Positions 1 to 5,439 of a DNA stretch of 5,439 nucleotides are shown here, piece after piece. A model generated the notes under the pieces. It was not told the origin of the DNA, ran no database searches, and saw only the letters and a list, made by a program, of their open reading frames with translations. The DNA comes from Escherichia coli. Lineage in GTDB: Bacteria > Pseudomonadota > Gammaproteobacteria > Enterobacterales > Enterobacteriaceae. Position 1 is the first letter of the stretch. Each line of letters opens with the position of its first letter. Position numbers and translations under genes: made by a program. The DNA lies in assembly GCF_003334785.1 (NCBI RefSeq), contig NZ_QOWV01000044.1; one strand, 5' to 3'.

Positions 1-60
1 GAATGGCCCTCCAACCGTGTTGACGAACTCCTGCCATGGAACGTAGTACTCACCAATAAA

Positions 61-92
61 TAAGCGTCAATACGGTGTTCCGTTGACGCTTA
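61..92 (-). terminator. Stem-loop, possible intrinsic terminator for leftward (minus-strand) transcription
   Basis: Seen in sequence: a perfect 10-bp inverted repeat, TAAGCGTCAA (61-70) and TTGACGCTTA (83-92), around a 12-nt loop that can itself form a 3-bp inner stem (CGG 73-75 with CCG 80-82). On the minus-strand transcript the stem is followed by UUUAUUGG (complement of 53-60). On the plus strand the following bases are not U-rich. It lies about 140 nt downstream of the 234-425 minus-strand gene. Confidence 0.35.
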
Positions 93-233
93 CTATAAAC
101 GTTTCCTGGGATGCGCTGAACACGGCATACAGTGAACACCCGGAGTGGTTTTCTGGGCTTGTCTCCGGGGATGAGAATTAATAAATGGATTATGCTGCCA
201 TCAGGCAGTGTGATTGCCGGCAGGGATTTCGTT

Positions 234-425
234 TTATTCTGTTTCTTCCCGGGGTTCGGGTTTGAATTTTCCCAGAAAGTTGTACATCGGTCGCATGCAG
301 GGATGCGGATAGCCGTCCCGCATAAACACCACCCGGGTTTCCTCAACACTGGTCACGGTGACAAGCGCACCATGATCGTCTTTGTATCGCTGATTGACTT
401 TCGGTAATGGAACATCTTCTGACAT
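234..425 (-). CDS. Small hypothetical protein, 63 aa; possibly DUF4222-like
   Basis: ORF with an ATG start at 425 and a TAA stop; an in-frame stop lies 8 codons upstream, so ATG is the only plausible start. No clear Shine-Dalgarno sequence. The translation (MSEDVPLPKVNQRYKDDHGALVTVTSVEETRVVFMRDGYPHPCMRPMYNFLGK...) is compositionally protein-like, with a YKDDHGALVTVT...RDGYPHPC pattern that I recall from small DUF4222-type proteins of enterobacterial islands and prophages. The family assignment is from memory only. The overlapping ORFs 50-349(-) and 132-407(+) are less protein-like. Confidence 0.5.
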   Translation of the reverse strand: MSEDVPLPKVNQRYKDDHGALVTVTSVEETRVVFMRDGYPHPCMRPMYNFLGKFKPEPREETE

Positions 426-1055
426 AAATTTTAGTACGGTAACAGTTAACTAAATTTTCATGTGGTAGCACTGAATCAGGAGACTGCGTTTCCTGATGTG
501 CGCTGTTAATTTTCTGTTTTTACGAAACATTTTCCCCTTCTTCCTGTGTATTTTATTGCGCTCCTCCTTTCATGTCCTTCCCATATCCTGAAACTCACTT
601 AAATGCTGTTGAATCGTCACGCATTGCAATTTTCAATGACTGAAATCAAAAATTGCTACTTTTTAGGCTAACCAACTGTATTAAAAGCATTCAGTGGAAT
701 AATTTTCTGCACTTTTCCATTAATTATGGTTATAAATTTTGCAATGTGCTGTTTTTGCGATATGTGACAGAATAAAGAACTGTTCATTTGTGCTATATCG
801 ATCGATAAATCTGTCATATTGCTGTAGTTCAGATCATTATTCTATAATGATCAAAAATAAGTCAGCTAAAAATTGGCAGATTTATTGCTCAGCATTCTGG
901 TACCGGTTGATGCGGGTAAATACCGGAAGGGCGGTAGCGTGCCATCGCAAAACATGGTGGGAGGTATCGTCAGGAGGCTGGTGATTGTTGGTATGACATG
1001 AATAAAAGGTTTTTCGTTTGACTGGAAAATTATGTTGCAGGAACGAGAGGGCTGA
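426..1055. promoter_or_regulatory. AT-rich non-coding region, likely promoter and silencing region
   Basis: Hand count of 661-780 gives about 30% G+C, against about 50% in a sampled stretch of the helicase gene (2281-2340). The only ORFs here (739-984 plus, 866-1102 minus) are Cys/Ser/Trp-rich and lack ribosome-binding sites. AT-rich tracts of this kind in horizontally acquired DNA are typical H-NS targets (established knowledge); binding is not shown by the sequence. Confidence 0.4.
819..848 (+). promoter_or_regulatory. Candidate sigma70-type promoter (-35 TTGCTG, 18-bp spacer, -10 TATAAT)
   Basis: Seen in sequence: TTGCTG at 819-824 and a perfect TATAAT at 843-848, oriented rightward toward the tpsB remnant and helicase gene. 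AT-rich DNA contains many chance promoter-like hexamers, so this is weak. Confidence 0.15.
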
Positions 1056-1517
1056 GGAACAAAGCTTATTCCGGCGCTGTCCGTCCTTGCTGTCACTGAC
1101 ACTGATGTCTGTTTTATTATCGCCTTTATCTCTTCAGGCCGCGGATATCAGCGCCAGCTGAGCAATACCCCGCTGACCCCACAGGAACAGTTTGCCATCG
1201 GTAACCGCTGGACGGTTCGTGGTTTTGACGGGGAGCGAACGCTGAATGCCAGTAACGGCTGGTATATCCGCAACGACCTGGCCTGGCGTACGCCACTGCC
1301 GGAGCAGGAGTTATATCTGGGAATGGATTACGGCGAGGTGGGGGGAGCCGGCAGTGAATACCTGGTGGGACGTCATCTGGCCGGTGGTGTTGTGGGGCTG
1401 AGGGGGCAACTGTTCAGTACGGATTATGACGTTTTCATCGGTCGTCCGTTTTCAAAACCGGCGGGTTTTATGACGAGTGATGTGACAGCCGGTTTTAATC
1501 TGTTCCGGGATTTCTGA
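1056..1517 (+). pseudogene. 3' remnant of an Omp85-superfamily two-partner-secretion transporter (TpsB; ShlB/FhaC/CdiB-like hemolysin-activator family)
   Basis: The reading frame is open from the stop at 1053-1055 to TGA at 1515-1517, but the first ATG is at 1323, with no credible start or signal peptide. The translation ...[59 protein letters not shown]...[25 protein letters not shown] contains the conserved (V/I)RG(F/Y) loop-L6 motif of Omp85/TpsB barrels (VRGF at 1215-1226) about 100 residues before a C-terminal aromatic residue (terminal F). Only about 150 codons are present; full-length TpsB proteins are about 550 aa. Confidence 0.6.
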
Positions 1518-1526
1518 GAAAATTTC

Positions 1527-3305
<1,779 letters not shown>

Positions 3306-3730
3306 TACCGGACCATTTTTTTATTCCGGACTTTCACCATACTGTTATTATCAGGTTTATTTAATTCACCATGAACCCATAATTTCACGATATTCAGATG
3401 CGTCTTTTTTATCTGAACCACTCTCCGCACTCCTGGCACTGGAATGTCAGATTCAGACCCCAGGAAGCCGTATATACTGGCAATGATACCTGTCATATAA
3501 TCATTACCTGTAATCAGTCAGGTTTTCATTTAACCAGGGACGGACAACGGCTGTTCACTGAGCGTTATATCAGAAACCTTAATGAGCTGTTACCTGTTCT
3601 GAAACGGCGGTGGGATGTGACGCCGGCAATTATCCGCGCGGTGGAATACCTTTCCCGGGTCCCGGTATCACACTGATGTTCTTTCCGTAACTGTTAATCA
3701 TGATTTAATACAGCAACACCGAATCTGCCG

Positions 3731-4804
3731 ATGACTTCTGAAGTGAAACTGAAAACCGGTGGTGACCCCCGGTCATTACCGGATTATGCTGCCCTGCGCG
3801 ATGAAATCAGCAAACTGACCCACCCGGCACGCCCGGATGTGGACTGGCGTTACGTGGAAACGCTCTGCCTGCGTCTGTATGAACACAATGGCGTGGAATT
3901 ACAGACGGCATCCTGGTACACCATCGCCCGGATGCATACAACAGGGTTAAGTGGCCTGAATGAAGGGCTGGCTCTGATTGTGGCGCTGACCCGGCATCAC
4001 TGGTCAGTGATGTGGCCGCTGAATACACACGCCCGGCTGGAAATTATTACCGGTCTGTTCAACCGTCTGCAAAAAACGCTCCGGGCCATGCCACCGGATG
4101 ACCGTGACAACCTGCCCCTGCTGTATCAGACCGAAACATTCCTGAAGGAACTGAGTGACACACTGGCCCGGTACGAACTTAAACAGAGCAGTAAAGTGGC
4201 TTTACCGGAAGCCATGGTGAAGGGATATATCACCCGTCTGGAAAATCAGCCGGTGCAGGGCGAAGCGTCGTCTCCGGTAACCCTTCCGGCTCAGGCACTC
4301 CGGTCTGATGCTCGGGACGTACAGGAACATCAGCCCCTGCCGCACTCCCGTCTGGTGTATGTTGTTTCTGAAACAAAAGCAGGGCCCACACCCTCCCTTC
4401 AAAAATCCCCTCCCACGTTTCTGAAACCGTTTGTGACTGGTGTCTGTGCGGCATTGCTGGCGGTCAGCGTGGCCATTCCGGGATGGCAGTATCTGACACA
4501 GCCATCACCGGCGGAGCAGCAACTCAGGGCGCTGCTGACACCACCACCGGATGTGCTTTCAGCAGACCAGATGACACAGCTCAGCAGAACACCCTCACTG
4601 TTAAATCATGCGTCAGAGTGGATAACCCTTTCCGGTCAGCAGATAACGCGACTGACAGAATTACCCCCGGCATATAACCTGCAGCGCAGTGCGCAGTTGC
4701 TGCAGCAACTGATGGTACTTTTCCCCGACAATCGTAAGCGTAAACTGACCGCCGTATGTAGCCATCAGACGAGAATTGGTAACTTAGACGCCCATCTGAT
4801 ATAG
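3731..4804 (+). CDS. Type VI secretion-associated ImpA_N-domain membrane protein (VasL/TssA-like); 3' end apparently replaced by IS66-family terminal sequence
   Basis: ORF of 357 aa. The N-terminal roughly 130 aa (GGDPRSLPDYAALRDEISKLTHPARPDVDWRYVETLCLRLYEHNGVELQTASWYTIARMHTTGLSGLNEGLALIVALTRHHWSVMWP) fit the ImpA N-terminal domain pattern of TssA/VasL proteins, as recalled. A single predicted transmembrane segment FLKPFVTGVCAALLAVSVAIPGW lies at about 4418-4486, consistent with VasL-like topology. The last 23 codons (from about 4733) are encoded by sequence starting with GTAAGCG, which I interpret as the IS66-family terminal inverted repeat, so the native C-terminus is probably lost. No strong Shine-Dalgarno sequence precedes the ATG. 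Confidence 0.55.
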   Translation: MTSEVKLKTGGDPRSLPDYAALRDEISKLTHPARPDVDWRYVETLCLRLYEHNGVELQTASWYTIARMHTTGLSGLNEGLALIVALTRHHWSVMWPLNTHARLEIITGLFNRLQKTLRAMPPDDRDNLPLLYQTETFLKELSDTLARYELKQSSKVALPEAMVKGYITRLENQPVQGEASSPVTLPAQALRSDARDVQEHQPLPHSRLVYVVSETKAGPTPSLQKSPPTFLKPFVTGVCAALLAVSVAIPGWQYLTQPSPAEQQLRALLTPPPDVLSADQMTQLSRTPSLLNHASEWITLSGQQITRLTELPPAYNLQRSAQLLQQLMVLFPDNRKRKLTAVCSHQTRIGNLDAHLI

Positions 4805-4818
4805 ACGGACATCTAAGT

Positions 4819-5244
4819 ATGGAATTACAGGACTGGCGAAAAGAACCTCGTAAAAACTATTCGAATGAATTCAAACTTCGTATGGTGGAACTGGCATCAC
4901 AACCTGGAGCTTGTGTTGCACAGATTGCACGTGAAAATGGCGTCAATGATAATGTTATTTTCAAATGGCTCAGGCTCTGGCAGAACGAAGGGCGTGTTTC
5001 GCGGCGTCTTCCGGTAACGACCTCTTCTGACACTGGCGTTGAATTATTACCTGTAGAAATAACGCCGGATGAGCAGAAAGAACCTGTGGCGGCCATTGCG
5101 CCGTCTTTATCCACTTCCACTCAGACCAGAGTCAGTGCCAGTTCCTGCAAGGTGGAATTCCGTCACGGTAACATGACGCTGGAAAATCCATCGCCAGAGC
5201 TGCTCACAGTGTTGATCCGTGAACTGACCGGGAGGGGAAGATGA
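4819..5244 (+). CDS. tnpA: IS66-family accessory protein OrfA (TnpA), 141 aa
   Basis: Translation MELQDWRKEPRKNYSNEFKLRMVELASQPGACVAQIARENGVNDNVIFKWLRLWQNEGR... matches my recollection of IS66/ISEc8-type orf1 proteins, which carry a helix-turn-helix-like N-terminal region. The stop overlaps the orfB start. Confidence 0.85.
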   Translation: MELQDWRKEPRKNYSNEFKLRMVELASQPGACVAQIARENGVNDNVIFKWLRLWQNEGRVSRRLPVTTSSDTGVELLPVEITPDEQKEPVAAIAPSLSTSTQTRVSASSCKVEFRHGNMTLENPSPELLTVLIRELTGRGR

Positions 5245-5439
5245 TCTCACTCCCATCAGGTACCCGTATCTGGCTCGTTGCCGGCGTTACCGATATGCGT
5301 AAATCCTTCAACGGACTGGGAGAACAGGTACAACATGTGCTGAATGATAATCCCTTCTCCGGTCACCCGGAGCAACACCTCCGCCCCTTCCGGGGTATCC
5401 TGCAGGCGGATGCGTTCACAGGTTACGACAGGTTGTTCA
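5241..5439 (+). CDS. tnpB: IS66-family OrfB (TnpB) N-terminus, partial at window edge; apparently fused in-frame to a transposase (TnpC)-like segment
   Basis: Translation MISLPSGTRIWLVAGVTDMRKSFNGLGEQVQHVLNDNPFSGH matches the IS66 orfB N-terminus as I recall it. The following residues PEQHLRPFRGILQADAFTGYDRLF do not match the expected continuation (LF.FRGRRGD...), and instead resemble the G.LQ.DGY.GY motif region of IS66 DDE transposases. The ORF is open to the window end. Confidence 0.6.
   Translation, partial: MISLPSGTRIWLVAGVTDMRKSFNGLGEQVQHVLNDNPFSGHPEQHLRPFRGILQADAFTGYDRLF

Follow-up and report, generated by a model that had tools for sequence, protein, structure and literature searches.

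An open reading frame at positions 3731 to 4804 (plus strand) of the window, by which we mean the whole 5,439-nt stretch of Escherichia coli DNA analyzed here, begins as a T6SS-related gene and ends within an insertion sequence. This raises the question of which gene it was, what interrupted it, and whether the machine to which it belonged is still encoded around it. The frame consists of 357 codons, the first 334 of which are codons 1 to 334 of tagA, an accessory gene of T6SS-1 (Sci-1), while the remaining 23 are IS-encoded; the stop codon, TAG, is located at 4802 to 4804. We put at about 90% the probability that the feature is a pseudogenized tagA of the Sci-1 type, cut by an IS and residing in an island without the cognate cluster.

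An earlier note, made from the sequence letters, had proposed an ImpA_N-like N terminus, a single transmembrane helix, and a place among VasL-type T6SS accessory proteins. The domain content of the product bears this out. ImpA_N (Pfam PF06812) was matched at amino acids 8 to 109 (positions 3752 to 4057, plus strand) with an E value of 6e-17. The Kyte-Doolittle hydropathy calculation gave one peak, FLKPFVTGVCAALLAVSVAIPGW, with a 19-residue mean of up to 1.99, which predicts a single hydrophobic membrane segment at approximately amino acids 230 to 252 (4418 to 4486, plus strand). The last native residues, 302 to 334 (4634 to 4732, plus strand), are the remnant of a VasL domain (PF12486) that occupies amino acids 302 to 443 in the intact protein; in the window product, the Pfam match extends over amino acids 302 to 338 and covers model positions 2 to 38 of 147 (E value of 4.9e-5). 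The NCBIfam equivalog models for core TssA, TIGR03362 and TIGR03363, gave 83.3 bits against a cutoff of 230.1 and 39.7 bits against a cutoff of 160.85, respectively. Since these scores are far below the cutoffs and the matches are confined to the N-terminal part, the product is an ImpA_N protein of the TagA/VasL class and not a core TssA. A complete VasL domain, absent from the window product, is present in the uninterrupted allele; therefore, the ancestral gene was a member of the TagA class, and the present product is its truncated derivative.

The intact gene is an orthologue of tagA of EAEC 042, with gene order kept. The 042 frame has 455 codons, and 321 of the 334 retained residues (96%) are identical to its product; between the intact sister-strain allele and 042 TagA, 420 of 451 residues are identical. 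E. coli TagA is composed of ImpA_N, a membrane region, and VasL, and it interacts with TssA; the protein, which is membrane-associated, takes hold of the TssA cap and retains the Sci-1 sheath in its extended form, and ~12% of antibacterial activity is left in a tagA mutant (PMC6745524, PMC6730261, PMC7896307). The TssA of the 042 Sci-1 system is EC042_4540 (PMC6745524). The cluster of 042 runs in the order tssB, tssC, tssK, tssL, tagL-like, hcp, tssH, vgrG, tle1, tli1, PAAR, tssM, tssA, one gene, tssF, tssG, tssJ, and tssE, after which come a small gene, a GIY-YIG nuclease gene, a NERD/UvrD helicase gene, a small ORF, and tagA. Both in 042 and in STEC308, tagA is thus found five genes downstream of the tssE of a complete cluster. 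In 042, it is 10 genes after tssA, and we take it to be EC042_4550 by counting genes from EC042_4540. The protein is reportedly cytosolic and tightly membrane-associated; the periplasmic placement that the earlier note gave to the lost C-terminal region would be a prediction from the single putative helix.

In the RefSeq/PGAP annotation, the intact 454- to 455-codon tagA appears as three "incomplete" pseudogene pieces (042, L007 44071 to 45438; L002 12432 to 13796; L004 10001 to 11365): one with ImpA_N, a middle one labeled hypothetical, POTRA, or ShlB, and one with VasL. Even 042, the strain of the experimentally characterized TagA, is affected, and the three-piece annotation looks like a systematic artifact. 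Because intact tagA is split in this way, automated surveys undercount functional tagA and cannot tell real pseudogenes from artifacts.

What interrupts the gene is ISEc23, an element of the IS66 family, whose start is the GTAAGCG at 4734 to 4740. When positions 3300 to 5439 were compared by megablast with 5,426 complete E. coli genomes, many genomes matched up to window base 4733 and no further, and thousands more matched the rest of the query, which is annotated there as IS66-like ISEc23. Alignment to intact alleles delimits the native 5′ part of tagA at 3731 to 4733 (plus strand); with uninterrupted alleles, such as that of strain 300709 (L002), the alignment stops exactly at 4733, and the retained part is identical to the 300709 allele in 334 of 334 amino acids. 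From 4734 on, 634 bp match an ISEc23 copy located at another site in another strain (L009) with 100% identity. The 23-codon tail of the frame, RKRKLTAVCSHQTRIGNLDAHLI, ending in ...DNRKRKLTAVCSHQTRIGNLDAHLI, is therefore IS-encoded, as the earlier note had supposed when it placed the entry into an IS66-type repeat at 4734 and the stop 23 codons on.

The insertion is framed by an 8-bp target-site duplication. Its left copy, CGACAATC, is located at 4726 to 4733, and the right copy lies beyond the window, at 6600 to 6607 of the draft contig L016 and at 18967 to 18974 of the TW10722 locus (L001). In the complete genome of TW10722, ...CCCGACAATC is followed by a 2532-bp element that begins with GTAAGCG and ends with CGCTTAC and then by CGACAATC and CCCGT.... 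On contig L016, CGACAATC flanks, left and right, an IS shortened to 1326 bp by an internal deletion, beyond which tagA resumes with its 3′ part. Strain 300709, whose empty site reads ...TTCCCCGACAATCCCCGTGTT..., has the 8-mer there once. The other IS end and the 8-bp duplication, for which the note had advised a search, were thus both recovered.

The uninterrupted tagA of strain 300709 is a 454-codon frame whose product carries ImpA_N at amino acids 8 to 109 and VasL at amino acids 302 to 443, the latter with a Pfam E value of 1.9e-37. Truncation after residue 334 of 454 costs 120 C-terminal residues, i.e., 109 of the 142 residues (77%) of the VasL match. The suspected loss of the C-terminal region was correct in that full-length orthologues run 120 residues past residue 334, through a complete VasL domain, instead of ending at the same residue with the same tail. 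The truncated 357–amino acid product has most likely lost its function. Against such a loss, the product retains ImpA_N and the predicted membrane segment, and the N terminus of V. cholerae TagA by itself still binds TssA (PMC7545191).

The left part of ISEc23 occupies positions 4734 to 5439 (plus strand), and its imperfect terminal inverted repeat begins with GTAAGCGT at 4734. The termini read GTAAGCGTAAAC... on the left and ...GTTGACGCTTAC on the right, with 18 of the first 24 positions complementary. The IS66 accessory gene tnpA (141 amino acids) is located at 4819 to 5244 (plus strand) and was recognized by NCBIfam NF047595 with 83 bits against a cutoff of 74. At 5241 to 5439 (plus strand), the 5′ part of tnpB is fused to the 3′ part of tnpC; the junction, at 5364 to 5367, marks a 1.2-kb internal deletion, and the fusion product in the window lineage has 262 amino acids. 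The copy at tagA is thus 1326 bp long (L016 5274 to 6599) compared to the full 2532 bp at the same site in TW10722, where tnpA, tnpB, and tnpC are all complete. The internally deleted copy is defective and should be incapable of transposition on its own. A second IS66-family right end occupies window positions 1 to 93, ending with ...GACGCTTAC at base 93. With the right end of the ISEc23 copy it shares 95.7% identity; in the TW10722 annotation it belongs to a partial ISEc47-like transposase, and its insertion separates the DUF4222 gene from a small hypothetical gene. Strain 10 and PK8241 have IS66-family elements at other sites of the region.

All 5439 bases of the window are 100% identical to positions 541 to 5979 of L016 (an 8188-bp draft contig of assembly GCA_012211965.1) and to several other draft contigs, and they are nearly identical to TW10722, the closest complete genome, apart from two deletions. 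The junction of the first deletion (1566 to 1574) was found in none of the complete E. coli genomes. It lies in a 592-codon fusion ORF at 1527 to 3305 that joins the first 13 codons of an HlyC-type toxin-activating acyltransferase gene to NERD and UvrD helicase sequences. This ORF arose when 2.1 kb was deleted between 9-bp direct repeats, TCCGGTGAG, with loss of the remaining acyltransferase gene and of a PD-Lambda-1-like GIY-YIG nuclease gene; the helicase part matches the PADLOC candidate defense family C3a187 (E value of 8.7e-140). The acyltransferase-helicase fusion is present on at least nine public contigs and in 0 complete genomes. The possibility that the window is an artificial splice, considered in view of the two deletions relative to TW10722, was rejected: the fusion protein occurs on at least nine contigs, and L016 is 100% identical. 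Exact-protein look-ups show that the two deletions are natural. A look-up of the same kind found the 357–amino acid truncated product on at least 24 public contigs, gut metagenomes among them, which indicates that the allele is fixed in a lineage.

No T6SS core gene is present in the 5,439-nt window, exactly as the earlier note had stated. The note had left a choice between the edge of a T6SS cluster broken by IS activity and a degraded T6SS island. In 042 and STEC308, the same flanks enclose a complete Sci-1 T6SS. The left flank common to T6SS-bearing islands extends from 94 to 865 and includes the DUF4222 gene (234 to 425, minus strand), whose product has no NCBIfam match. Homology to 042 on this side stops at window position 865, 64 bp before the start codon of 042 tssB. 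In place of the 27-kb Sci-1 cluster, there is a segment at 866 to 1566 (plus strand) that contains a C-terminal ShlB/FhaC pseudogene fragment (1146 to 1517) and the first 13 codons of the HlyC-type acyltransferase. The correspondence can be followed in TW10722, where 1.09 kb (L001 10445 to 11537) with the ShlB/FhaC C-terminal fragment and the HlyC-type acyltransferase gene takes the place of 27.35 kb in 042 (L007 12813 to 40166), i.e., of the whole cluster. The right breakpoint (042 position 40167) falls inside the small gene after tssE (39864 to 40265). The TW10722 and 042 islands share hha, an inovirus Gp2-like gene, two zinc-ribbon genes, small ORFs, and the DUF4222 gene on the left side and the GIY-YIG gene, helicase, small ORF, and tagA on the right side; identity between the island types is ~86% in the left flank and ~95% in the right one. 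The pheU island of TW10722 spans ~67 kb, from tRNA-Phe with an integrase to an integrase fragment beside cadC, and no T6SS core genes are annotated between tRNA-Phe and cadC. A cluster edge in a degraded island therefore agrees with the synteny to 042 and STEC308 and with the missing cluster. In this lineage, neither breakpoint of the cluster replacement coincides with an IS end, and breakage by IS activity therefore holds for tagA alone.

In PK8241, the same slot (L010 1 to 2665) holds a fuller two-partner-secretion locus with ShlB, acyltransferase, and filamentous-hemagglutinin N-terminal genes. Given the ShlB/FhaC fragment in the window and this fuller locus, T6SS and two-partner-secretion modules seem to alternate in the slot. 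Directly upstream of tagA, a conserved 92–amino acid ORF (3398 to 3676, plus strand; annotated as 101 amino acids in 042) was found at every locus that we looked at, and neither NCBIfam nor PADLOC assigns it to a family. Nor did TagA, the acyltransferase, or the small gene that follows tssE match a defense family in PADLOC. Downstream of tagA, beyond the window (L002 14035 to 15468), there is an ORF with a long perfect tandem repeat encoding (AEV)n, which is frameshifted or length-variable across strains and is followed by KAP NTPase, QatC, and QatD genes. The position downstream of tagA is taken by Zorya II in STEC308 and by an ATP-dependent nuclease in 504239. The KAP NTPase and QatC/QatD genes mark the right side of the island as a phage-defense hotspot.

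To look for T6SS genes per genome, we used chimeric queries composed of a tagA anchor and pieces of T6SS genes and counted the matching places in each record; the genome-wide tests were run on TW10722. The Sci-1 tssC piece misses the 78%-identical metV-type tssC, as inferred from the counts, and the metV type was tested separately. The TW10722 chromosome gave no match to Sci-1-type tssC or tssF, with STEC308 as a positive control (3 places), and none to metV-type tssC in a chimeric query with a positive control. It does match tssC of the T6SS-2 type, which belongs to the aspV island, elsewhere in the genome. Hence, the cell is probably not T6SS-free, though its tagA is orphaned from the cognate system. 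T6SS-2 encodes a TagA paralogue of its own, 29% identical and with the same two domains. Strains 300709, WS4437A-1, and A14 had no match to any of the tssC types tested (Sci-1, metV type, and aspV type), and an intact 454-codon orphan tagA was verified in 300709 and A14. Intact tagA in strains without all three tssC types could reflect recent loss or some residual selection.

The same disproportion is seen at the population level. Sequence of the tagA type was found in 1508 of 5426 complete E. coli genomes (~28%); at least 80% of tagA is covered in 437 of the 1508, and many others hold fragments of 10 to 35%. Sci-1-type tssC at 90% identity or more was found in ~152 records, which makes tagA-type sequence ~10 times as frequent among complete E. 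coli genomes. It follows that tagA indicates that an island of this type was once present, but it is a poor indicator of a functional T6SS. Where Sci-1 was missing from a sampled locus, tagA was intact in 300709, E62, A14, and PAR but carried a frameshift or stop in RIVM_C039629, strain 10, PK8241, and A2. Pairwise dN/dS of tagA is 0.18 to 0.57 between lineages and 0.64 to 0.76 within the orphan clade, where it is calculated from 3 to 20 substitutions and so is not decisive. This range of alleles, from intact to broken, together with the dN/dS values, is what one sees when a gene has lost its machine and decays faster in some strains than in others, the ISEc23 allele of the window being one of the products.

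Other readings of the locus have to be weighed against these data. A contig misjoined at a repeated IS, with the gene really intact, would also produce such a junction, and the sequence is indeed carried by a short 8188-bp draft contig with IS66-family copies repeated nearby. An assembly artifact is nevertheless extremely unlikely given that the junction recurs in the complete genome of TW10722, where the 8-bp duplication is perfect, and that the contigs carrying the truncated protein, at least 24 in number and including gut metagenomes, are independent. It is very unlikely that Sci-1 was never part of the island in this lineage, i.e., that tagA and its neighbors are ancestral cargo next to which the cluster was inserted in other lineages. 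The T6SS-less arrangement is far commoner than the T6SS-bearing one, and the left and right flanks differ in identity between island types (~86% versus ~95%), both of which speak for this history. However, TagA has no known function other than binding the cognate long TssA from its own cluster (PMC6745524, PMC7896307), tagA usually accompanies TssA-long clusters, one per cluster (PMC7896307), and the right breakpoint inside the small gene after tssE looks like a scar of deletion or replacement and not like an insertion site.

A different question is whether orphan tagA has a role independent of T6SS-1, is kept by selection, and merely happens to be truncated here. It might serve the aspV-type T6SS-2, the tssC of which is present in TW10722, or act together with the 92–amino acid ORF, the NERD/UvrD helicase, and the PD-Lambda-1-like nuclease. 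The block of four genes, i.e., the PD-Lambda-1-like GIY-YIG nuclease, NERD/UvrD helicase, small ORF, and tagA, stays together across islands and outlives the T6SS in many E. coli. The frame is an intact 454–amino acid one in the Sci-1-less strains 300709, E62, A14, and PAR, of which 300709 and A14 are also without metV-type and T6SS-2-type tssC. Against this, many orphan alleles have suffered frameshifts or IS insertions or survive as 10 to 35% fragments, the higher dN/dS of the orphan clade (0.64 to 0.76 versus 0.18 to 0.57, from 3 to 20 substitutions) fits relaxed constraint, T6SS-2 has its own TagA paralogue, tagA is without a PADLOC defense match, and the window allele is itself disrupted. 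We consider such a role very unlikely. Its more specific form, in which orphan TagA would have taken on a membrane-associated role independent of T6SS, perhaps tied to the neighboring defense genes, is also very unlikely; if it were true, the IS-hit allele of the window would be a loss-of-function variant of that role.

For the preferred reading, a decayed tagA left without its Sci-1 cluster, we infer the following order of events. The 27-kb core, from tssB to tssE, would have been lost from a pheU/pheV-type island, of the kind that usually harbors Sci-1, with a 1.1-kb two-partner-secretion remnant in its stead. This would have left tagA and the phage-defense genes between tssE and tagA without a machine. 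ISEc23 would then have transposed into codon 335 of tagA, duplicating CGACAATC, and the copy would later have lost 1.2 kb internally. The resulting frame codes for ImpA_N, the membrane segment, and a stub of VasL, followed by 23 residues derived from the IS. Overall, the feature is already known biology, an ordinary decaying gene remnant. Its significance is small: it is one more case of reductive decay of an E. coli T6SS island, in which an accessory gene outlived its machine and was then hit by an IS.

The known systems can be compared with the locus as follows. The element is like ISEc23 of the IS66 family in its 100% identical 634-bp left end, GTAAGCG...CGCTTAC termini, and 8-bp duplication; the genes are ordered tnpA-tnpB-tnpC in the full-length TW10722 copy, and the copy of the window lineage differs by the 1.2-kb deletion and by the fusion of tnpB to tnpC. 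EAEC 042 TagA (Santin et al. 2018, as cited in PMC6745524) is an orthologue that shares the architecture of ImpA_N, hydrophobic segment, and VasL and is likewise preceded by the small ORF, NERD/UvrD helicase, and GIY-YIG nuclease. In the window gene, by contrast, ISEc23 cuts off everything beyond residue 334, including 77% of VasL, and the cognate Sci-1 cluster, including tssA, is missing from the window-type island. V. cholerae TagA/VasL (VCA0121; a class B TssA-like protein, for which the name TsmA was proposed) also has ImpA_N, a membrane region, and PF12486, and its reported role is to stop and stabilize the extended sheath (PMC6745524). It is a distant relative, the V. cholerae and E. coli TagA proteins being 19.3% identical (PMC6745524), and VCA0121 lies within an intact cluster. 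The TagA paralogue of the aspV-island T6SS-2 (ECs_0217 of O157:H7 Sakai) resembles the full-length protein with 29% identity (E value of 2e-48) and has both ImpA_N and VasL, but it belongs to another T6SS and adjoins tssM in its own cluster. Core TssA of the EC042_4540 type shares the N-terminal ImpA_N domain, whereas the window-type gene has a VasL C terminus and a membrane segment in place of the C-terminal ring domain of TssA.
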